64,000 nt of DNA, taken from Dictyostelium discoideum (taxonomy: Eukaryota). This document shows, piece by piece, positions 2,592 through 52,891 of the stretch. Position 1 is the first letter of the stretch, and every line of letters begins with the position of its first letter. The stretch is taken from assembly GCA_000004695.1 (NCBI GenBank), contig CM000151.3, forward strand, positions 5,536,001 to 5,600,000. The letters are read 5' to 3'. The translations under genes were made by a program, and so were the position numbers. The notes beneath the pieces are model-generated. The model was given only the letters and a program-made list of their open reading frames with translations. It did no database searches and was not told the DNA's origin.

Positions 2592-2990
2592 TTAATTACA
2601 ACCACATGAGCCACCACTTGGTAACATTGAGGATGGATTCATAGCAACTGATGCATCAACCATAACAGTAACTGGAATATGAGAGACCTTACCTGCTCCA
2701 GTGTTTGCAACATTTCCAATTAAGGATCCCATTGGGTTTGAACTACCACCACATTCACCACATGCAATTTTATTGCTACCAAATGAAATTGCTGAATTTC
2801 TGCCTGATCCAATTGATGATGATGAGGATGATTTAATGTTACCAATTTTAGAGATTGAAGCTTTAATATTATTTTTTAAAATTTGGAAAATAATAAAAAA
2901 AAAAAAAAAAAAAAAAAAAATTAGGAATTTATTGATTAATCTTTTTTTAATAAATAAGGTATTTTAAAATACTTTACCAATTATTGTCAT
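2592..2990 (-). CDS. hssA/2C/7E-family small Gly/Ser-rich protein; complement(join(2592..2860,2978..2990)), 89 aa
   Basis: The 13-nt first exon ATGACAATAATTG is followed by a GTAAAGT donor and an AT-rich intron ending ...aaag. Exon 2 reads ASISKIGNIKSSSSSSIGSG...ACGECGG...GGSCGCN*. Phase and length are consistent (13+269 nt). The protein is near-identical in architecture to the + strand copy at 8915. Confidence 0.75.
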
Positions 2991-3447
2991 TTTTTAAAGT
3001 TTTAAAGATTATTTTTTAATTTTTGATTTGAAATATAAATAAAAACAAAAAAAAAAAATATTTATACCTTTAAAAAAAAAAAAATAAAAATAAAAAAAAA
3101 AATAAAAAAAAAAAAAAAAATAAAAAAAAAAAAAAAAATAAAGTAAAAATAAATTTGTAATCAGATTTAAAAAAAAATAGTAAATAAATCTAAAAGTGGT
3201 AAAAATTAATTACCCCATTAATTAATTTAATTTTATTTTTAAAATAAAATTAAAATAATCTAAAATAAAATAATAACAAATAATGATAAAGGAGAATTGG
3301 AAAAGATTATTGATTTTTTTTTTTTTAAATTAAAAAAATAAAATTTATATTTCAAATTTTTAAACTCATGGTTATATTTAAAATAATACATGATTATAAT
3401 ATTTTTAAAAATATAATTTTATTAATTTTATTTTAATTTTATTATGT

Positions 3448-3792
3448 TTATTCGCAACCACATACACTATGTATATAAATTGTTTCACCTGTTGCAGAAA
3501 CAGCTGGGTGATAAACAACCTGTTTATTATTATTTCCACCCAAACTTCCCAATAAACCGCCCAATAAATTATTAGCACCAAATAAACCAGATCCAGAGTT
3601 TGATTCACATTTTTTTTTTTTTGATGAATATAAAGATATAAAATTATTATTTGATATTGACCCACCACCAATTGAAAATTTCTTTGGGTTACTAATTTTA
3701 ATTATTGATCCTAATTATTTTAAAATAATTAAATTAGTATTATTTTTTTATTTAATTTTTTAGATTTATAAATAATTACCTATTATTGTCAT
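3448..3792 (-). CDS. hssA/2C/7E-family small protein; complement(join(3448..3710,3780..3792)), ~91 aa, divergent copy ending ...VCGCE
   Basis: Exon 1 is ATGACAATAATAG with a GTAATT donor. Exon 2 after a ...taattag acceptor reads GSIIKISNPKKFSIGGGSISNNNF...SGSGLFGANNLLGGLLGSLGGNNNKQVVYHPAVSATGETIYIHSVCGCE*. Confidence 0.6.
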
Positions 3793-3854
3793 TTTTAATT
3801 ATGGGTTTTATTTTTATTTTTTTTTTCTATTTTAAAAACAATTAATAATAATTA

Positions 3855-3901
<47 letters not shown>

Positions 3902-4594
3902 AATAAATAAATAAACTCTTCTAGTAATGGTTAATTTAAATTTTTAATAGTAAAATTAACCATTTTAAAATATTCTTTTATTTTTATGAAAAGATTTTCA
4001 AAAAAAAAAAAAAATTTTATTTTTTAAACATTGAAATAAAAACAGGTTAACAAATTTTACATATTTCAATTATTTAATTAATTATTTTTACAATTCCACA
4101 TTAGGAAATAAAATTTTACTCTAATTTTTTATTTTAAAAGTTAAGTTCTTTTTTTAAACACTCTACAATTTTGTAAAAAATAAAATTTTTTTATTTTAAC
4201 ACTATTCCCCCAATATCGTGGTTTAAATTAAATATTAATAAAATCTAAATTAATTGAGCAATAATTATCATTTTTAAAAAAATAAAAAAAAAATAATTTT
4301 AATAATATTAAAAAATTCTTTTCATATTACTATAATTAAATAAAAAAAATAAAAAGTCCACAATCAAAATTTGAAAACATCAATTAAACAATATTTTTTT
4401 TAAGTTTTTTTAAATAAGATTTAATAGATGTGGGTTCAAAATGGAAATTCATAATTTTACTAAACAAAATGTCAAAAAACAGTTTTAAATAATAGATATT
4501 TTTAAAAAATTAATGTTTATGAAATAGTAATGTTATAATTTTATCTAGTGTTAATGTTTTTTTTTTTTTTTTTTGAATAAAAAAAATAAAAATC

Positions 4595-4733
4595 TAATTG
4601 CAACCACATGCACATGGTCCCATCATTGAACCTGTTTGTGGTCCCATTCCACCACCAACATTGACACCACCATTTGGAGAACCACCCAAGCCACCTAATA
4701 AACTTCCAAGTAAACCTTTATTTCCTCCTAACA
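4595..4733 (-). pseudogene. truncated hssA-family gene fragment (C-terminal ~46 codons only)
   Basis: It reads LGGNKGLLGSLLGGLGGSPNGGVNVGGGMGPQTGSMMGPCACGCN*, almost identical to the C-terminal half of the intact copy at 5223-5500. No MTII first exon and no N-terminal Ser-rich part lie within 300 bp upstream. Confidence 0.45.
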
Positions 4734-5184
4734 CACAAATTTGGAAATAATAAATTATAATTTAAAATGTTGATGAAAAATTTAATATTGTTTTGATTTT
4801 GCTGAATCAAATGAATTATTTTTCATTCTCAACATAATTATTTTGATAGGTTGGAATAATATGTGTCCATTTTAAATAAATCTCAATATTTTTCTATTAG
4901 ATATTGTTCTTTTTTCATTCAATAGTAAATATCAAACCTTTAAATTAATTACATTTAAGTAAACTTAAATTTTTATAAACCACTTTAATATGATTGAATT
5001 ATACAACTTAATAGAAATTTGAAAATAAAATTTAGATGTATTATAAGTTTGTATTTATTGAAAATGAAAATTCATTTTTTAATCATTTTAAATTTTTTAT
5101 TTAAGATTTAAACATATGATTTCTTTTTTAAAATAATGTTAATGGAAAAGTAATTTTATAATTTTATTTTAATATTAATGTTAA

Positions 5185-5217
<33 letters not shown>

Positions 5218-5222
5218 AAAAT

Positions 5223-5593
5223 TTAATTACAACCACAATAATTTGGTTGACCTCCTCCCATCATTGAACCTGTTTGTGGTCCCATTCCACCGCCAATATT
5301 GACACCAACTTTTGAATTTGGAGAACCACCTAAACCGCCTAGTAAACCAAGTAAACCTTTATTTCCTCCTAATAAACCAGAACCAGAGCCTGAACTACCT
5401 CCGCATGAAACACTATTTGAACCAAATTTAAATGCAGCACTAACAGTTGAAACAGAGCCAGTAGTTGATTGTTTTGGATTTGATAAAGTAATGATTGATG
5501 CTATTTAAAAAAATTAATTAGAAGTTGAAATTAAAAAAAAAAACCAAAACAAAAAAAGATTAAAAAAAAAAAAAATTTACCAATGATTGTCAT
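5223..5593 (-). CDS. hssA/2C/7E-family small Gly/Ser-rich protein; complement(join(5223..5500,5581..5593)), 96 aa
   Basis: Exon 1 is ATGACAATCATTG with a GTAAAT donor. Exon 2 after ...ttaaatag reads ASIITLSNPKQSTTGSVSTVSAAFKFGSNSVSCGGSSGSGSGLLGGNKGLLGLLGGLGGSPNSKVGVNIGGGMGPQTGSMMGGGQPNYCGCN*. Phase and length check out (13+278 nt). Confidence 0.75.
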
Positions 5594-5686
5594 TTTAAAT
5601 TGGTATTTTTAATATATTTTTTGAAGTATTAAATTAAGTTTTTGATTTATAAAATAAAATTTTTTTTTTGTTCTTTTATACCTTTA

Positions 5687-5725
<39 letters not shown>

Positions 5726-5987
5726 ATAATAAGGATTTGGATTTGGTGGAATAAATAAAAAAATAAAATAATAAGGCCACCTTTGGTAAGTAAACACTAG
5801 CAATTTTAAAATTATTTTATAAACCATGAAATTTTTGTATTTTTAACTTTAAAAAACATTATTTCTTACCCCCTTTATTAATAATTGTTACTTTTTTTTA
5901 AAAAGATACACAAACACACAAACTTGTAAAAATTAATTTTACTATTTTTTTTTTCTTTAAAAATATAGGTGATAAATTAAAATATTA

Positions 5988-8369
5988 TTATTTTATTAAT
6001 TGTTTTAATAATTTGAATTCAGTTGGTGATGGTTTAATATTATAATTATTTTTTAATAAAAGTAATCTTGAGAAAATGAAATCGATGGAATCTTTATCTA
6101 ACTTTGTAATTAAACTTTCATTTTTTAAATAATTTAAAACCTGAAGTAAATTATCTAACATATTTGTATAATTAATTTTAATATTATTATTATTATTATC
6201 ATTATTTTGTTGTTGTTGTTGTTGTTGTTGTTGTTGAATAAATTTCATATGTTGATCTTGTTTGAATTTATTATCTAATAAATAACCATATAATATTAAA
6301 TCTAAAGTTACTTTATCAAATAAATCATCACCTGAACCTGAACCAATTATATTATTATTATCTTTAATAAAAGATATTAAAGCACTTGAAGGATAATTAA
6401 AATAAGCCATTGTATAAAGTAATACTGATTGATTCATAATTTTACTTTGAATACCATTTGTGGAAGTTGGAATCATTTTATAATATTTAATTGCTTTATC
6501 AATTTCATTTAATCTTGAAAGACCAAATATTAATTGATTTAATATAAAAGTATTTAATTTAAATGACCATTGATTTTTCAAACGATTTAATACTGAAAAT
6601 GAATAATCAATATCTTTTTTAACTATTAATTGGTGATAATTAATTGCTAAAAATGTTTGACTATTACCCATAAATTCAGTTTTTAATTTCTTTTGATTCT
6701 TTTTTGTTTTTCCTGTTGTCGTCTTTGTTGAATCTAATGTTGGTGGAATTATGAAATCACCAGAATTTAAAAATATTTCATCAACCATTCTACCTTGATA
6801 AGCTTGTAATTTTAATTTTGAATTAAACATTTCTAAATCTAATAAAACACCTTCTTCCTCCATAAATGCTTCTAAATTTTCAGCAAATTCAACATAACCA
6901 TTCTTATAGCAATGAATTAAAATCGATTTAAACATTTCAATATTTCTAACTGGTGTATCTTTTAATTGATCATCTTTTGCTAATTTACCATATAATTGTT
7001 TTTCATTTTTTTCTTCATCATCATCTTTTTGATTATTTGTTTCTTTTTCATTATCTTTTTCATTTTCTTTGTAAAATAATTCTCTTTTCTTTTTAATTTT
7101 ATCAAATTCATATGATTTTACTTCTTTTTCATCAAATGAATTAGATTTAAAGGTTGTAAGGAATTCTGAAGTGACAGAAGATACGGTTGCACCTGGTTGA
7201 CGATTATAATATTCGAAAAAGTGAATGAAAACATCTGGATGAAAATTTTGAAAGAATGATTGCATATTTGAAGAGATCATTTCAGCTGAATTAATTTGAT
7301 CCAATTCTAAGAAAACTTTAATCATTTCGCTAAAATCCAAAGGATCAAGTTTTCTATTAAATGCCTTATTCTCTAGTTGTTGAAAGAATTTCCAAAGTTT
7401 TGATTTCCTTTTCATATATTGAAAAGTATATTTATAAACTAAATTCCCTTCTTTAAAATGATGATTTTGGTAAAGCGGTCTTGCCATCTCAATGATTTTA
7501 TAATAGTCTTCTCCCTCAACTGATTTTTCAATTAATTCCATATTCGACTCACTTAAAACTAATCCATTTAAATTATTATAAATCATTGGATAATTTGATT
7601 TAAATAAATTATTTTTTAAGTGAATTTGGAATGAATGTAAATGTAAATCAATTCTATCTTGGAATGATAATGGATCTTTTTGATCTCTAAATTTTTTAAT
7701 CACTAATTCTTCACTATTTTCAAGTGATCTTTCAAATGGTTCAGATTTATTTCTACCAACCATTGATAAAGTCTCTGACTTTTGTTTATTTAATAATCTA
7801 TTTTTAGTTATATTTTCTTGATGTGATTTTAAACGATTATAAAGATTCAAACGTTTTCGTTTCTCCATATCAGTTTTTATCTTTTCCAAGTATTCACTTT
7901 TCATTAATTTAATATTTTCTTTTCTTTTTTCTAATTTCTCTTTTTCTTTTTGTTTATCTGAAATCTCTTTTTGTTTATTTGAAATTTCTTTTTCTTTTTC
8001 TAAAAATGAATCTCCTCTTAAATTATTTTTACCAAATCCAATTAAAATATTATTATAACTATTATTATTATTTATATTATTATTATTATTTTCATTTTCT
8101 TGTTGTTGTTGTTTTTTTAATAATAAATTATCTTTTTTTTCTTGTTTTTTTATTTCAATTTCTTCTTCTTTAATTAATAAATTTTCAATCTTTTTTTCAA
8201 TTTCTTCTTCTTTTTGTTTTAAATCTAAAGATATTTTTTTTTTTAATTTCAACATTGTAGTTGGAAATTTTCTTTGTGCATTATTTTTTTTTGTAAATGA
8301 CCTTATTAATAAAGGATTTATATTATTTGGATAATTTAAAATAAAAGATCTTTTAATTAAATTATTCAT
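5988..8369 (-). CDS. hypothetical 793-aa protein with a basic N-terminus, a K/E-rich coiled region and C-terminal helical repeats (possibly PPR-like, mitochondrial)
   Basis: Uninterrupted ORF from a genuine ATG (cat at 8367-8369). C-terminal segments such as TFILNQLIFGLSRLNEIDKAIKYYKMIP have a PPR/TPR-like periodicity. There is an internal poly-Q/poly-N. No specific family was recognised. Confidence 0.55.
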   Translation of the reverse strand: MNNLIKRSFILNYPNNINPLLIRSFTKKNNAQRKFPTTMLKLKKKISLDLKQKEEEIEKKIENLLIKEEEIEIKKQEKKDNLLLKKQQQQENENNNNNINNNNSYNNILIGFGKNNLRGDSFLEKEKEISNKQKEISDKQKEKEKLEKRKENIKLMKSEYLEKIKTDMEKRKRLNLYNRLKSHQENITKNRLLNKQKSETLSMVGRNKSEPFERSLENSEELVIKKFRDQKDPLSFQDRIDLHLHSFQIHLKNNLFKSNYPMIYNNLNGLVLSESNMELIEKSVEGEDYYKIIEMARPLYQNHHFKEGNLVYKYTFQYMKRKSKLWKFFQQLENKAFNRKLDPLDFSEMIKVFLELDQINSAEMISSNMQSFFQNFHPDVFIHFFEYYNRQPGATVSSVTSEFLTTFKSNSFDEKEVKSYEFDKIKKKRELFYKENEKDNEKETNNQKDDDEEKNEKQLYGKLAKDDQLKDTPVRNIEMFKSILIHCYKNGYVEFAENLEAFMEEEGVLLDLEMFNSKLKLQAYQGRMVDEIFLNSGDFIIPPTLDSTKTTTGKTKKNQKKLKTEFMGNSQTFLAINYHQLIVKKDIDYSFSVLNRLKNQWSFKLNTFILNQLIFGLSRLNEIDKAIKYYKMIPTSTNGIQSKIMNQSVLLYTMAYFNYPSSALISFIKDNNNIIGSGSGDDLFDKVTLDLILYGYLLDNKFKQDQHMKFIQQQQQQQQQQNNDNNNNNIKINYTNMLDNLLQVLNYLKNESLITKLDKDSIDFIFSRLLLLKNNYNIKPSPTEFKLLKQLIK

Positions 8370-8914
8370 TTATTTTTTTTTTTTTATTTTTTTTTCGTAA
8401 AATGAAATCATAAATTAAAAAAAAAAAAAAAAAAAAAAACCATTTTTTTTAAATTTTTTTTTTTTAACCATTGATTATGGGATCTAGTGCTAAAATTAAA
8501 AATATTGGGGTCCTTTTGCGATTTATTATAAAAAAATTAAAATTATTATAATTATTATAGATTTTAAGTTTTGGGGAGGAATTATATTTTTTTAAAATCT
8601 AAAATAAAATCTATTATATCATTGTTTATTTATATTAATTAAAAAATAAAAAAAAAATTAATAAAAAAAAAAATAAAAAAAATGGGTGTGGTAAATACCA
8701 ATTTAATTATTAATCAAATTAAAAAACTTTAATTAAATGAAAAATATTCAAAACTTTAATAACTATTTACTATTTGACTTATTGTCATAATAATTAAATA
8801 AACAATTTAATTTTAATTAATAAATTTTAGTATAAATTTAAAAAATAAAAAATTTTAAAAGTATCAATTAATTAAAAAAGTAAAATTAAAAGTATAACAT
8901 TCATCAATTAAAAA

Positions 8915-9293
8915 ATGACAATCATTGGTATTGTATCTAAAAAGTTTATTTAAAAAAAAAAAACAAAAAAATAGTTTTAAAGATATTAATTTTTTAATTT
9001 TTAATTTTTTGAAAAAAAAAAAAGCTTCAATCTCTAAAATCGGTAACATTAAATCATCATCATCTTCATCAATTGGATCAGGTAAAAGTTCAGCAGTTTC
9101 CTTTGGTAATAGTAGAATTGCCTGTGGAGAATGTGGTGGTAGTGCAACTGGATTATTAGGAAATATTGCAAATTCTGGAACAGGGATGGTTTCTCAAATT
9201 CCAGTAACTGTTATGTTAGATGTAAATGCAAATGCTAATCTTAATCCATCAATGTCTGCTGTACCAGCAGGAAACTCATGTGGTTGTAATTAA
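8915..9293 (+). CDS. hssA/2C/7E-family small Gly/Ser-rich protein; join(8915..8927,9025..9293), 93 aa
   Basis: Exon 1 is ATGACAATCATTG|gtattg. An intron of 97 nt ends at aaaaag. Exon 2 reads ASISKIGNIKSSSSSSIGSGKSSAVSFGNSRIACGECGGSATGLLGNIANSGTGMVSQIPVTVMLDVNANANLNPSMSAVPAGNSCGCN*. Confidence 0.8.
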
Positions 9294-9386
9294 AATTGTT
9301 AACTATCATTACAACTTAATATTATTACTACCATTTATTATTAAAATTAGTAATAAATCAAATTTTCCTTTATTTTTTATTTTTTT

Positions 9387-9447
9387 TATTTATTTATTTC
9401 CATATCTATTGTTTTTTTATTTATTCCCATATCTATTGTTTTTTTTT
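9387..9447. repeat. two-copy ~30-bp tandem repeat (tttatttatt[t/c]ccatatctattgttttttt) immediately 3' of the hssA-family gene
   Basis: The direct repeat is visible in the sequence. Confidence 0.6.
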
Positions 9448-9998
9448 CCAATTGTTATTTTTAATTATTTTCCATTTTTATATAAATTCTAAGAATCTTG
9501 AAAAAATTATTAAATTTACTTTAGAATATCCAAATAAAAAATTAAAAATTGTAATTTTTTTAAAAATATTTGCCCAACACACCACGATATTACTATCACT
9601 AGAAAATGAAAAAAAATAAAACAAAACTATTTACCCCCATTTCCCTAATTTAATCTATTTTTTTTATTTTTTTTATTTTTCCAAATTTTATTTCCGACCC
9701 CACTTTTTATTTTTAATTTCATTTTACCACCACCAAATACTATTTACCTTTTTTATAAAAGGTGATGAAAAGTATTAGAATTTTAGAAATTACACAAAAA
9801 CTTTGAAAAACATTATAATATAACATTTTATAAATTTTAATATGAATCAAAATTTTTATTTGTTTTTTTTTTTTTTTTTTTTTTAATATAAAAGAAAATA
9901 ATTTTTCATTTTTAATTTCATCCAATCAACAATAAATTAAGTACTACTATAAAATTTTATAAAATTATCTTTGTAACTCAATAAAAAAAATAAAAAAA

Positions 9999-10068
9999 AT
10001 GACAATCCTTGGTAAATATTTTTTAAAAAAAAAAAATTTATATATACTAGTTTGTTTGGTTTATTAAT

Positions 10069-10105
<37 letters not shown>

Positions 10106-10387
10106 GCATCAATTTGTAAATTAGGTAACACCAAATCAACTTCATCCTCAATTGGATCAAGTTATAGTAGTGCTGTTTCATTTGGTTCTAACTCAGTATC
10201 ATGTGGAGAATGTGGTGGTGATGGACCATCATTTCCAAATGCATCACCAAGAACTGGTGTAAAAGCTGGTGTTAATGTTGATGGATTATTAGGTGCAATT
10301 GGAAAAACAGTTAATGGTATGTTAATTTCCCCAAATGGTGGTGGTGGTGGTATGGGTATGGGTGGTGGTAGTTGTGGTTGTAATTAA
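9999..10387 (+). CDS. hssA/2C/7E-family small Gly/Ser-rich protein; join(9999..10011,10107..10387), 97 aa
   Basis: Exon 1 is ATGACAATCCTTG|gtaaat. The intron ends aaaaag. Exon 2 reads ASICKLGNTKSTSSSIGSSYSSAVSFGSNSVSCGECGGDGPSF...GGGGGMGMGGGSCGCN*. Confidence 0.8.
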
Positions 10388-10513: not shown

Positions 10514-13657
<3,144 letters not shown>

Positions 13658-13908
13658 TAATCGAAACCTTTTTTTAAAAAAAAAATAAAAAATATTAATA
13701 TTAATTAAAACACCAAAAAAAAAAAAAAAAAAAAAAAAGAAAATTAATAAATTTGGCAATTTCTTATTTTTTTTAATAGTTTTTGCAATATTTTAAGAAA
13801 AATTGATTAATTCACACAAAAAAAAAGAATAAGAAAATTGCCTAATTTTATTAATTTCTAATAAAACAAATCAATTTATTAAATATTAAATATTAAATAT
13901 ATATATAT

Positions 13909-14572: not shown

Positions 14573-15621
14573 TTAACCAAATCTAAGTAAAACTTGTTTT
14601 TGTTTACCACCTTTTTTAATGTATTGATCATCTTGAGTTTCTTTTGGTGGTGGGGTAGTCTTCTTTTTTGGAATAAAATTCTCTTGTCCTGGAAGTGAAG
14701 GGAAATCTTCAGTATCATTTGTTGGAGCTTTATTAACTCTTAATGATGGTGGTACTGTTGAAGATGGAGAAGAGGAGGAGGAAGAAGAAGAAATATTAAC
14801 TTTTGATAAAGTTGAAGCTAAACTTTGTTTATTTGAATTACTTTCAACTTGGACCTTTGAAAAGTTATTTGAACTTGTATAACTATCACCACTAAATCTT
14901 GAGGATAATGATGGGTATGAATCAACATCATCATCATCATCATCATCAGAATCACCAGTTCTTGGTACATATCTTGTTGATGTTAATCTATAAGCCATTG
15001 ATGTTGCAGAGTTATCATTATGATGTTTAATTTTTGATGCTGCATTATTATTTTTATTACTGCTACTGCCATTACTGCTGCTACTACTACTACTACTGCT
15101 ATTACTAAAATTATTTAAATAACCTGGATAACTAATAATACCATCAGATGGTCTATTCTTTACTAAAGTTAAATTTGCAGATGAACCAGTTGACCAAATA
15201 TTTGAAGGATTTGCATTACTTTTAGTTTTTTTATTTGAACCAATTGCACCATTAAGTGATGGATATTGTTCTTCTACTACTTTCATATATGAATGAATTT
15301 GTGATAAAGCTTCTCTCTTTGCTTGATTTGGTAATAAGGCAATTAATTCATCGAAAATATCATTTGCTTTAGTACCAAATAAACCTAAAAACTTTGTATA
15401 ATAAGCATTTGGTTCCAATTTACCATTTTTAAAATCTACAGATAATGATTTAAAAGTTTGATATTTCTTGTCATTATTTAAAATCTCTTGAATCTTTGAA
15501 ACTAATTTTTTATTTCTTTCATCAACTTCAGCTTGTGTAATCTCTTTTTCTTTTTCTTTATGAAAATCTGGATTAAATGTTGATGGTGCTGGTGCATTTA
15601 ATAAATTTCTTGTATTTAATC

Positions 15622-15658
<37 letters not shown>

Positions 15659-16806
15659 GTTATTATTATTATTATTATAATTGTTATTATTTGATGAAGT
15701 TGTAGTTGTAGTAGTTGTAGTTCTTGTGGTTGTTGTTGTTGTTGTGGTTCTTGGTAAATTAATTTGTTGACCATTTAAATTCGTATTAAAAGCATCAGCT
15801 GAAGGAATTATTGGATTATTATTTGAAGTTGAATGAGAAGGTCTATCAAAAGTAATGTTAACTTGAGTAGCACTACGTTTTTGATTTTTTGACATTTTAC
15901 TTGTATCTAAATGAGTTGAGATTTCATGAGATTTCAAAGAGTATTCATCAGGGAAAACTATGAATTTCTTTTCTAAACATTCTGGATGCATACATGGAAA
16001 ATGTTCATCATTGAAATGATGACGAATCTTTGGATAATCACTGAAATATTGATAGAGTAAACCTTTACTTTCACAAACAAAACAAGAGAAATGCATCTTG
16101 TTCAAATGATCATAGAGTTGATCATTGCCATAATAGTATTTGTTACAGAATTTACAAGCTGGATGACCCTTTTTCTTACCAACGATTGTAATACCCGCAC
16201 CACCATCCCATTCAGACATATGAATGGGTAATTTCTTTGGATCGTATACATTTTGTTCCGCTAGGAATACTTTTCTATCGGCTAAACAAATTTGACAAAA
16301 CATTAAAGCGTGCTCAGTGGTTAGATGGAGTTCTAACTTTTTGATCGATGGTAAATGTGCATTACAAACTTGACAAATCGGTTCCCAAAGTCTTGCTAAT
16401 GATTTCTCAAATTCTGCATCGGTGCAATAGGCATTCAATCTACCATTGAATGCTAATTTAGATTTATCATATTCTTCAAATTTCTTCTCCTTGTCTTTGG
16501 TGATAATGATAGTCTTTGATTCGGTTTTACAAATACAACATTTCATCTCCTTATAGAGTTCTCTTTGTCTAAGTAAACAAAATGAACAAACTTCAACATG
16601 TTCACAAATACCCTTACCATAGAATACTATTGGATCACAACATACTATACAATTATCTGTTATTGGTGGTTCTGATTCAAATCTTTTCATATCTAATAAT
16701 GTTGAGAAACTTTTATCACTAAAATATTCTAAAATCTTAGTTGGTACAACTGATTGATTATTATTCGTTGATGTTGTTGTTGTTGTTGTAGTTGTGGTTT
16801 GTTTTC

Positions 16807-16839
<33 letters not shown>

Positions 16840-17308
16840 TGTTATTATTGTGACTATGTCCATGACCATGTGCATGACCATGACCATGACCATGGGCATG
16901 ATTATGTCCATGACCTTGTCGGTGTCCATGACTATGATTATGATTATGACTATGACCATGTCCACCTCTATGTTGTTTTTTTTCATTTGATTCATTTGAT
17001 TCATTTGATACTGATTCATTGTTATTATTATTATTATTATTATTATTAGCATCAGGATTTGATGCTTTTGGTTTTGAATTTCTATGATTTTGTGGTTTTG
17101 GTGGTGGTTTCACACTTTCAGCATTTTCAAGTTGAGATGGTTTTGGTTGCTTTGGTTTATCTGTCTTTGGTTTATCTGTTTTTGGTTTATCTGTTCTTGG
17201 TTTATCTGTTCTTGGTTTTTGTTGTTTCTGTTGTTGTGGTTGTTGTTGTGGTGGTGGTTTATTATCACCAGTTGATGTGGTTGTAGTAGTAGTGGTTGTT
17301 GACTCCAT
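14573..17308 (-). CDS. ZNF598/Hel2-like RING-type E3 ubiquitin ligase (ribosome quality control) with an N-terminal His-rich tract and KP(K/R)TD repeats
   Basis: The RING segment CIVCCDPIVFYGKGICEHVEVCSFCLLRQRELYKEMKCCICK is followed by C2H2-like fingers (LELHLTTEHALMFCQICL..., HPACKFCNKYYYGNDQLYDHLNKMHFSCFVC). This matches ZNF598 architecture. There is a (HGHxH)n tract at ~16860-16970 and a 15-nt-period repeat at ~17150-17230 encoding KPKTDKPRTD. The ATG is genuine (cat 17306-17308). Confidence 0.65.
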
Positions 17309-52036: not shown

Positions 52037-52891
52037 TTATTGAGTTAAATTTTCACGACATGGGCAACAACCAAAGGGTTTTTCACCTGGTTTACAATAT
52101 TTAATATCCATTGTGCACATAGCTTTAGAACAATCTGGAACTTTGGTTTCTTGAGGTGTGCAAGGACAACAACCAGTTGGAAGTTCACCATTTTTACAAT
52201 ATCTAATGTCCATTGTACACATTACATCAGAACAATCTGGTTTTTTAGTTGGTTGAGGTGTACATGGACAACAACCAGTTGGAAGTTCACCTTCTTTACA
52301 GTATTTCAAAATCTTTGGACATGGAACTCTTGAACAATCTGGTTTTTTAGTTGGTTGAGGTGTACATGGACAACAACCAGTTGGAAGTTCACCTTCTTGG
52401 CAATATTTTAAAATCTTTGGACATGGAACTTTTGAACAATCTGGTTTTTTAGTTGGTTGAGGTGTACATGGACAACAACCAGTTGGAACTTCACCATCTT
52501 TACAATATTTGATTTGAAGAGTACATGCGACACCTGTACATGGTTCACAACGACCACAACAAGAATCGGTCATGTTTAATCTATAATATGGTTTACATAC
52601 TGGTCTAGCACATTTAACAAGGGAGCAATCTGGTTTGGTTGGTGGGAGAGTACATGGACAACAACCGGTTGGAACTTCACCATCTTGACAATATTTGACT
52701 TGAAGAGTACATGCAACATCGGTACAAGGTTCACAACGACCACAACAAGAATCGGTCATGTTTAATCTATAATGAGGTTTACATATTGGTTGGGCACATC
52801 TAACGAGGGAGCAATCAACATTAACTTCACTTTTAACTGATAGTACCAAACAACTTGATAGAATTAATAATAGTATTAGTTTATTTAACAT
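52037..52891 (-). CDS. secreted cysteine-rich tandem-repeat protein (284 aa) with a signal peptide and ~7 copies of a ~33-aa PDCSxVxC...YCxxGE(L/V)PTGCCPCTPQPTKK module
   Basis: The signal peptide is MLNKLILLLILSSCLVLSVKS. The repeats are nearly identical at the DNA level (~99-bp unit, 52130-52560). The ATG is genuine (52889-52891). Confidence 0.7.
   Translation of the reverse strand: MLNKLILLLILSSCLVLSVKSEVNVDCSLVRCAQPICKPHYRLNMTDSCCGRCEPCTDVACTLQVKYCQDGEVPTGCCPCTLPPTKPDCSLVKCARPVCKPYYRLNMTDSCCGRCEPCTGVACTLQIKYCKDGEVPTGCCPCTPQPTKKPDCSKVPCPKILKYCQEGELPTGCCPCTPQPTKKPDCSRVPCPKILKYCKEGELPTGCCPCTPQPTKKPDCSDVMCTMDIRYCKNGELPTGCCPCTPQETKVPDCSKAMCTMDIKYCKPGEKPFGCCPCRENLTQ
52130..52560. repeat. ~99-bp coding tandem repeat array (4-5 near-identical units) inside the Cys-rich secreted protein gene
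   Basis: The block ggacaacaaccagttggaagttcacc...ggttgaggtgtacatggacaacaacc recurs with >90% identity. Confidence 0.7.

Follow-up and report, generated by a model that had tools for sequence, protein, structure and literature searches.

Five HssA/B-like genes and one headless remnant in an old, conserved cluster on Dictyostelium discoideum chromosome 2

In a 64-kb stretch of Dictyostelium discoideum chromosome 2 (hereafter the window), positions 2592 to 10387 hold a cluster of small genes of the hssA/2C/7E (HssA/B-like) family. We consider it about 90% probable that the cluster comprises five two-exon genes, independently transcribed and oriented divergently around the gene DDB_G0275821, and that it is an old array under selection with a decayed sixth slot. 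The interval is the catalogued hssl23–hssl27 cluster together with one headless remnant; it was already known, and the 13-nucleotide (nt) first exon of its genes is a published hallmark. The comparative results are new here, namely the conserved layout, a ratio of non-synonymous to synonymous substitution rates (dN/dS) of ~0.3, and complementary decay in one slot. We labelled the intact copies A, B, D, E, and F and the tail-only fragment C, and their positions in the window are as follows.

2592..2990 (−): copy A, hssl23 (HSL23_DICDI, Q86H94; sigN111), PF05710 E = 2.7e-22; exon 1 2978–2990, intron 2861–2977 (117 nt), exon 2 2592–2860; 93 amino acids, ending SCGCN
3448..3792 (−): copy B (sigN168; hssl24 by numbering), PF05710 E = 1.2e-7; exon 1 3780–3792, intron 3711–3779 (69 nt), exon 2 3448–3710; 91 amino acids, ending VCGCE
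4440..4593 (−): duplicated 3' flank of fragment C, homologous to the D 3' flank at 5066–5222
4594..4731 (−): fragment C, tail-only copy, 45 codons plus a TAG stop
5223..5593 (−): copy D, hssl25 (DDB_G0275819, Q553K1; sigN142); exon 1 5581–5593, intron 5501–5580 (80 nt), exon 2 5223–5500; 96 amino acids, ending YCGCN
5988..8369 (−): central gene DDB_G0275821, a 793-amino-acid open reading frame (ORF), exact match to XP_643413.1
8915..9293 (+): copy E (hssl26 by numbering), inverted paralogue of A; exon 1 8915–8927, intron 8928–9024 (97 nt), exon 2 9025–9293; 93 amino acids, ending SCGCN
9999..10387 (+): copy F, hssl27 (DDB_G0275437, P15649; sigN108); exon 1 9999–10011, intron 10012–10106 (95 nt), exon 2 10107–10387; 97 amino acids, ending SCGCN

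In the gene models, the 13-nt exon 1 was spliced to the first downstream AG acceptor leaving the homologous frame open as far as a stop. All five intact copies are predicted to have a 13-nt exon-1 ORF and one short intron, with a GT donor and an AG acceptor. Copy E has a further AG upstream, at 8982, with which the frame likewise stays open (107 amino acids); this alternative was set aside. The exon-1 motif (ATGACAATNNTNG followed by GTA) was found five times in the 64 kb, compared with 0.01 expected from shuffles, and the C-terminal motif (TGYGGNTGYRANTAR, Cys-Gly-Cys-(Asn/Glu)-stop) six times, compared with 0.02 expected. Every match of both motifs fell inside 2592–10387, and none elsewhere in the window. 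The base composition of the region is ~80% A+T. The introns of the five genes were 69–117 nt long and AT-rich, with 21–55% A and 38–68% T on the coding strand.

An earlier note, made from the sequence of this stretch, had placed five intact copies at exactly these coordinates and strands, and all five gave clean two-exon models of 91–97 amino acids. The unrelated 793-amino-acid gene that it put between the two arms was likewise found as described, as the ORF at 5988–8369 (−). Its estimate of A-rich introns of ~100 nt had to be revised to the range and AT-rich composition given above. The shared SCGCN ending holds for A, E, and F, and B ends in VCGCE as noted, but D ends in YCGCN and the fragment in ACGCN.

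The products of the five genes matched PF05710 (HssA/B-related) at 79.8 (A), 32.9 (B), 67.5 (D), 60.8 (E), and 75.6 (F) bits, all above the gathering cut-off of 21.4; the matches covered profile positions 1–90 of 90, with E-values of 1e-7 to 3e-22. Letter for letter, A, D, and F are the D. discoideum AX4 HssA/B-like proteins 23, 25, and 27 encoded on chromosome 2, copy A being an exact match to XP_643410.1/Q86H94. The hssA/2C/7E identity proposed from the sequence was thus upheld. Copy F also bears the old, pre-genome accession P15649 / CAA34832, which may mark one of the founding 2C/7E complementary DNAs. The predicted proteins are small and rich in Ser, Gly, and Cys (91–97 residues with 13–25 Gly, 14–21 Ser, and 3–5 Cys). 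Fragment C has neither a profile match nor exon 1 nor the N-terminal half.

By chromosome, exon and intron sizes, and length, four copies could be matched to entries in the table of Vicente 2008: A to sigN111, B to sigN168, D to sigN142, and F to sigN108. The entry for sigN168 (chromosome 2, 13//262, intron 68, 91 amino acids; PMC2257962) corresponds to B, and sigN142 is D with a superseded 49-nt exon model, corresponding to the 108-amino-acid P0003. Copy E is absent from the 2008 table. Its exon 2 is covered by an old 120-amino-acid model with a different N-terminus, P0006, which is apparently the 2008-era model of this gene. The 13-nt-exon model of E is supported by the structure of its paralogues and orthologues, and its D. 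firmibasis orthologue is annotated at the same length as modelled, 91 amino acids. A protein search with copy E returned two matches, the word-index search being limited for low-complexity peptides. In the table, sigN111, sigN168, sigN142, and sigN108 are 26–38% identical to SigN1; A, B, D, and F are outlying members of the family and not sigN Group 1/2 genes.

The family has been described before. Vicente 2008 (PMC2257962) reported 96 sigN-like small-protein genes in D. discoideum, 89 of which have the 13-nt exon-1 ORF and a single intron, and the 13-bp first exon in a family of nearly 100 genes was described again in Kin 2018. Among transcriptional milestones, the family is enriched in those from tip to slug and from slug to Mexican hat. 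The supplements of Kin 2018 gave no expression values for D, F, or DDB_G0275821. Wu 2021 knocked out six family genes singly with CRISPR (clustered regularly interspaced short palindromic repeats), including D and F, and observed no developmental or germination defect; the six were stated to be developmentally regulated in dictyExpress. The single guide RNAs and primers listed there place DDB_G0275819 at D and DDB_G0275437 at F. PF05710 has been reported as Dictyostelium-specific, and we observed the same restriction: an exhaustive hidden Markov model search of 1.84 billion representatives gave five proteins at E ≤ 1e-3, four of them from Dictyostelium species and the fifth a MetaClust record without a named source that matches copy E. 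The five include one orthologue each from D. dimigraforme and D. firmibasis.

Through the central gene and these orthologues, we located the corresponding loci in D. dimigraforme (L001) and D. firmibasis (L003); a locus of another D. discoideum assembly (L002) was also compared. Both sister species showed the same order and orientation, which in window orientation is Nramp, A, B, a degenerate copy, D, the central gene, E, and F. The first exon that the earlier note regarded as conserved was present in all 15 orthologue models from the three species, together with GT..AG introns of 69–117 nt and intact frames, and two of the models reproduce the annotated P0007 and P0008 exactly. Exon 1 codes for M-T-(I/L)-(I/L/V/F) and supplies the opening base of codon 5, and the intron is phase-1. 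The variation of exon 1 is synonymous (ATA/ATC/ATT, ACA/ACT), apart from the fourth residue, which is I, L, V, or F. Since the Ile and Thr codons vary synonymously, the constraint acts on the amino acids and not on the nucleotides.

The dN/dS comparison that the earlier note had called for gave pooled orthologous values of 0.30–0.34 at synonymous divergences (dS) of 0.36–0.48 (five genes, three species), indicating purifying selection on the peptides. Where orthologues differ by coding indels, the reading frame is always kept. The N-terminal ~40 residues and the terminal CGC(N/E) were best conserved, and the Gly-rich C-terminal halves were indel-prone. The B orthologues in both sister species also end in CGCE. 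In D. discoideum, copy F has a GGGGGMGMGGG stretch and ends in CGCN (10107–10387), while its orthologues lack the stretch and end in CGCE (L001:5181-5541, L003:10001-10350).

Paralogues within the cluster were 28–73% identical in amino acid sequence. The region was aligned to itself with stricter scoring, as a permissive self-BLAST (+1/−1) gave AT-rich noise. The mirror-image arrangement suggested earlier was not recovered. The arms are divergent, but A and E are the sole inverted paralogue pair (72% nucleotide identity over 555 nt including flanks, 73% amino acid identity, dN/dS 0.42), and there is no palindrome, since A is the outermost gene of the left arm but E the innermost of the right. 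A and E were each closer to their own orthologues (81–90% amino acid identity) than to each other, so the inverted duplication is older than the split of the three species. The proposal of birth-and-death evolution applies to the slot between D and B, but not to A, B, D, E, and F, which are stable one-to-one orthologues in three species. The array is therefore old and stable, with turnover confined to that slot. The cluster probably arose by old local duplications, including the inverted duplication that yielded A and E, and had all its members by the time the lineages of D. discoideum, D. dimigraforme, and D. firmibasis separated. The five genes have persisted since then as one-to-one orthologues under moderate purifying selection, with an exon-1/intron structure probably inherited from the family ancestor and kept by selection on the peptide N-terminus.

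The peptides are 9–10 kDa in size, Gly/Ser/Asn-rich, slightly basic, and 48–59% G/S/N/T/A, with a maximum 19-residue hydropathy of ≤1.11. Simple hydropathy, a heuristic, gave no transmembrane-grade or signal-peptide-like segment in any of the five. AlphaFold2 returned no confident fold (mean predicted local distance difference test score 41.8, with a shallow alignment), and the peptides are apparently disordered. As a best guess, we place them with SRCP1 as low-complexity proteins of the cytosol rather than classically secreted ones, and they may act redundantly with the ~100 paralogues. The earlier note had suggested a secreted or structural peptide family, and Vicente 2008 (PMC2257962) considered secretion or a role in extracellular matrix and adhesion for sigN group 2, where immunochemistry indicated possible secretion and antibodies to group-2 SigN proteins disrupted mounds. 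The conserved Cys residues could also form disulfides. However, the N-terminus MTIIASISK has a hydrophobic stretch of only 3–5 residues and no n-region, and no transmembrane-grade segment follows by the same heuristic. Vicente 2008 (PMC2257962) themselves noted that they had demonstrated neither the specificity of the antibodies nor external binding, and SRCP1, the sole biochemically characterised relative, acts on cytosolic aggregates. We therefore regard a secreted or matrix role for these five peptides as rather unlikely.

The slot between D and B holds fragment C, which the earlier note had rightly seen as decapitated but had placed at 4595–4733 with 46 codons; its extent is 4594–4731, with 45 homologous codons and a stop. 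Aligned to D, C begins at a sharp breakpoint at the D codons for LLGGNKG and continues through the stop and ~150 nt into the 3' flank. Upstream of the breakpoint C does not align to D, and it is without exon 1, intron, and N-terminal half. The tail of C was 89.6–90.9% identical to that of D and 70–73% identical to those of the D orthologues, indicating that C was derived from the D. discoideum D lineage after speciation, by partial duplication or gene conversion from the 3' half of D and its flank. The co-duplicated 3' flanks of C and D were 79% identical, or 71.5% over 123 aligned nt, and C keeps a few ancestral states that D has lost. The 45-residue tail alone had no Pfam match. A displaced exon 1 was sought in the flanks, as the earlier note had advised, and no exon-1 motif with ≤2 mismatches was found near C, so the copy is headless. 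No ATG..GT/AG combination in the D–C spacer restores its ORF, and a tblastn search near C with the D. dimigraforme head-only copy described below gave no head remnant, the only overlap being with the first 21 residues of C.

The same slot has decayed the other way in the sister species. D. dimigraforme has a head-only copy, X, at L001:10891-11174 (+), with a canonical exon 1 and intron and a stop after ...GLLGSNNN. The head-only X of D. firmibasis, at L003:4524-4729 (−), has the exon 1 ATGACAATTATTA and stops even earlier. Both X copies are unannotated, lack the Gly-rich tail and CGCN, and occupy the D–B slot. The D-to-B interval is 943 nt in D. discoideum and 955 nt in D. dimigraforme, and C starts almost at the X ATG. 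A sixth ancestral gene between D and B has probably decayed, and in D. discoideum the slot holds a tail fragment derived from D. Between C and D the stop changed from TAA to TAG, all three indels are multiples of 3, and dN/dS was 0.24. Only ~15 substitutions separate them, and when polarised by outgroup the C lineage has ~4 non-synonymous and 2–3 synonymous changes, which is not different from neutrality. C is most likely a young pseudogene.

The alternative that C is not dead but is used by hssl25 (D) as a second, alternative last exon draws on the retained ORF and stop, the indels in threes, the low C/D dN/dS, and a coding part that is 90–91% identical beside a co-duplicated flank at 72–79%. 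Two routes can be drawn, both with an in-frame D–C junction: from D exon 1 to a TTAG acceptor at 4727/4728, giving a 48-amino-acid MTII-GGNKG...CACGCN peptide, or from GTAATTAA at the D Cys-Asn-stop as donor, giving a 134-amino-acid D–C fusion. Exactly this 134-amino-acid fusion is the GenBank annotation of the other D. discoideum assembly (L002:12777-13776, equal to window 5593–4594), in which the donor GTAATTAA overlaps the D stop and the intron is 515 nt. Such calls look like a habit of the annotation pipeline, however, since the D. firmibasis annotation at L003:2740-3913 joins the intact B and A orthologues into 169 amino acids; because that fusion involves two intact genes, we gave the D–C call little weight. 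The AX4 RefSeq/UniProt model of D has 96 amino acids and two exons, and D itself ends in a stop, beyond which its 3' flank is conserved between species. The required introns of 515–850 nt are well above the 69–117 nt of the 15 modelled genes. The substitution counts are tiny and the polarised changes fit neutrality, and gene conversion or faster decay of AT-homopolymer flanks would give the same pattern of identity. We consider this alternative improbable, and the chance that C is still translated as such an exon, so that the slot is not simply a graveyard, is slimmer still. If true, it would mean exon shuffling between tandem paralogues through their shared phase-1 intron, yielding new C-terminal variants, and the head-only copies of the sister species would be its modular counterpart.

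We also considered whether the CGCN-stop codons are conserved for their nucleotides, as a cryptic splice donor. This was rejected, as both the copies and the orthologues show synonymous changes (TGT/TGC, GGT/GGA), which places the constraint on the peptide. In addition, the reverse screening primer of Wu 2021 for DDB_G0275819 (CCAAGTAAACCTTTATTTCCTCC) matches exactly at 5347–5369 in D and at 4706–4728 in C; paired with the forward primer, it thus has two possible priming sites.

It could also be proposed that the five genes matter as RNAs rather than as peptides, as was suggested for hssA. A frame-shifted hssA construct still suppressed the phenotype of partially active STATa (Kin 2018), and the frameshift single knockouts of D and F had no phenotype (Wu 2021). 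However, orthologous dN/dS was ~0.3 in five genes of three species, synonymous sites are free to vary in exon 1 and in the CGCN codons, coding indels are all frame-preserving, and 15 of 15 ORFs are intact, which together show selection on the translated product. We give an RNA-only role little credence. That the motifs are chance or low-complexity matches in AT-rich DNA and not genes has next to nothing left in its favour, since, although permissive self-alignment gave many spurious long AT-rich matches, the motif counts, the Pfam matches above the gathering score, the three exact catalogued proteins, and the conserved orthologues already refute it.

The promoters of the cluster are 85–92% A+T and contain G-rich or C-rich islands conserved between orthologues. 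The following elements were recorded.

3209..3229 (−): G-rich element TAAATTAATTAATGGGGTAA, 239 nt upstream of A, conserved in three species
4210..4280 (−): non-coding block with a GGGGG island, ~420 nt upstream of B, aligned to L001:11336-11410
8681..8706 (+): G-box-like element AATGGGTGTGGTAAATACCAATTTAA, 234 nt upstream of E, conserved in three species

The conserved islands upstream of E (AATGGGTGTGGTAAA) and of its paralogue A (AATGGGGTAA) lie at a near-equal distance of about −235, and the F promoter has conserved G-rich/C-rich blocks at about −301/−255 in the three species. The block at 4210–4280 is a candidate regulatory element. No promoter k-mer common to the five paralogues was found, and the conservation is between orthologues only. 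The link between the islands and GBF rests on the G-box consensus and on the title of one paper. That title (Shimada 2008) names the family as GBF-dependent. Transcription of the five genes would then be post-aggregative and driven by elements of the G-box/GBF type.

Several points weigh against the reading favoured here, of a selected five-gene array with a decayed slot, or against parts of it. The spliced B and E models had no exact match in the protein collection; their splicing is predicted from sequence logic and orthologue conservation (for B also from the 2008 table), and the names hssl24 and hssl26 for these two follow solely from the numbering. The open frame of C, its stop, its indels all in multiples of 3, and its low dN/dS against D speak against a pseudogene. 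The islands are possibly G-box/GBF sites, as suggested by a paper title and the G-box consensus. The literature on the family points in three directions, which are secretion or adhesion (sigN group 2), an RNA-level effect (hssA), and a chaperone activity (SRCP1), and the biochemical role of the five genes is putative throughout.

Publications since 2008 have covered the family, the number of its members, the 13-nt first exon, and the clustering; RefSeq/UniProt contain the genes, and two have been knocked out. The comparison adds an old, stable, and selected array, which argues that the five genes act through their peptides and not solely as RNAs. It also points out the parts under constraint, the N-terminal ~40 residues and the terminal CGC(N/E), and it reveals one slot that has decayed in complementary ways, leaving a tail in D. 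discoideum but a head in each of two sister species. The automated fusion of neighbouring family members in new Dictyostelium assemblies will distort family counts.

To the left, the cluster is bordered by an Nramp transporter gene, and on the other side by a large ORF with no family above the Pfam threshold. Scans of the window for transfer RNAs and Rfam families gave no match. The central gene DDB_G0275821 encodes a hypothetical protein that is not a family member, its best Pfam match being a sub-threshold PPR hint (E = 0.31). It is syntenic in D. dimigraforme and D. firmibasis and separates the two arms. Its N-terminus is basic and Asn-rich, and its orthologues have 822–855 amino acids in the sister species and 786–793 in other D. 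discoideum assemblies. Elsewhere in the window, a 1065-amino-acid ORF at 10562–13759 (−), whose sole Pfam match is TFIIA below threshold, contains a nearly perfect (TGT)83 array at 12266–12515, a typical homopolymer-coding tract of Dictyostelium. The 911-amino-acid ORF at 14573–17308 (−) is of the ZNF598 type, with PAH and C2H2 above the gathering score and RING just below, and is probably the Dictyostelium homologue of the ribosome-collision E3 ligase. A 284-amino-acid ORF at 52037–52891 (−) is made of 102-nt and 186-nt tandem repeats (85–91% identical) and is Cys-rich in appearance, with no Pfam match at E ≤ 0.001.

Compared with the hssA/2C/7E family (PF05710, 'Coiled'/HssA/B-related), the five intact genes showed no difference: they share the length of <120 amino acids, the Gly/Ser-rich composition, the MTI(I/L) start, the CGC(N/E) end, and the 13-nt exon-1 ORF with a single intron. 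Fragment C differs from the family in having no head and no Pfam score on its own. The sigN Groups 1 and 2 (Vicente 2008, PMC2257962) belong to the same family, lie on chromosome 2, have the 13-nt exon, and are clustered in pairs of opposite orientation, which were read as duplications of an original divergent pair. Each group has 6–7 near-identical genes; Group 2 genes are ~95% identical to each other and have palindromic intergenic promoters. Identity to SigN1 is 60–70% for Group 2 proteins and 94–99% for Group 1, and the groups were mapped to two regions of chromosome 2 (PMC2257962). In contrast, the paralogues of the present cluster are 28–73% identical, its arms are split by an unrelated 2.4-kb gene, and its members have one-to-one orthologues in sister species.

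SRCP1 (DDB_G0293362) resembles the five products by description, being ~9 kDa, serine-rich, Dictyostelium-specific, and listed among hssA-related genes. It is described as a suppressor of polyglutamine aggregation and placed in the same Panther class of small developmentally regulated proteins (Wu 2021). The chaperone activity is known for SRCP1 itself and would be putative in hssl23–27. Finally, C and the X copies resemble the processed or partial-duplicate pseudogenes of tandem families in the generic birth-and-death model, in that they are decayed members within an array. They differ from the generic case in that C is not retro-processed, carries 3' flanking DNA, and sits in a syntenic slot, and in that the rest of the array is stable.

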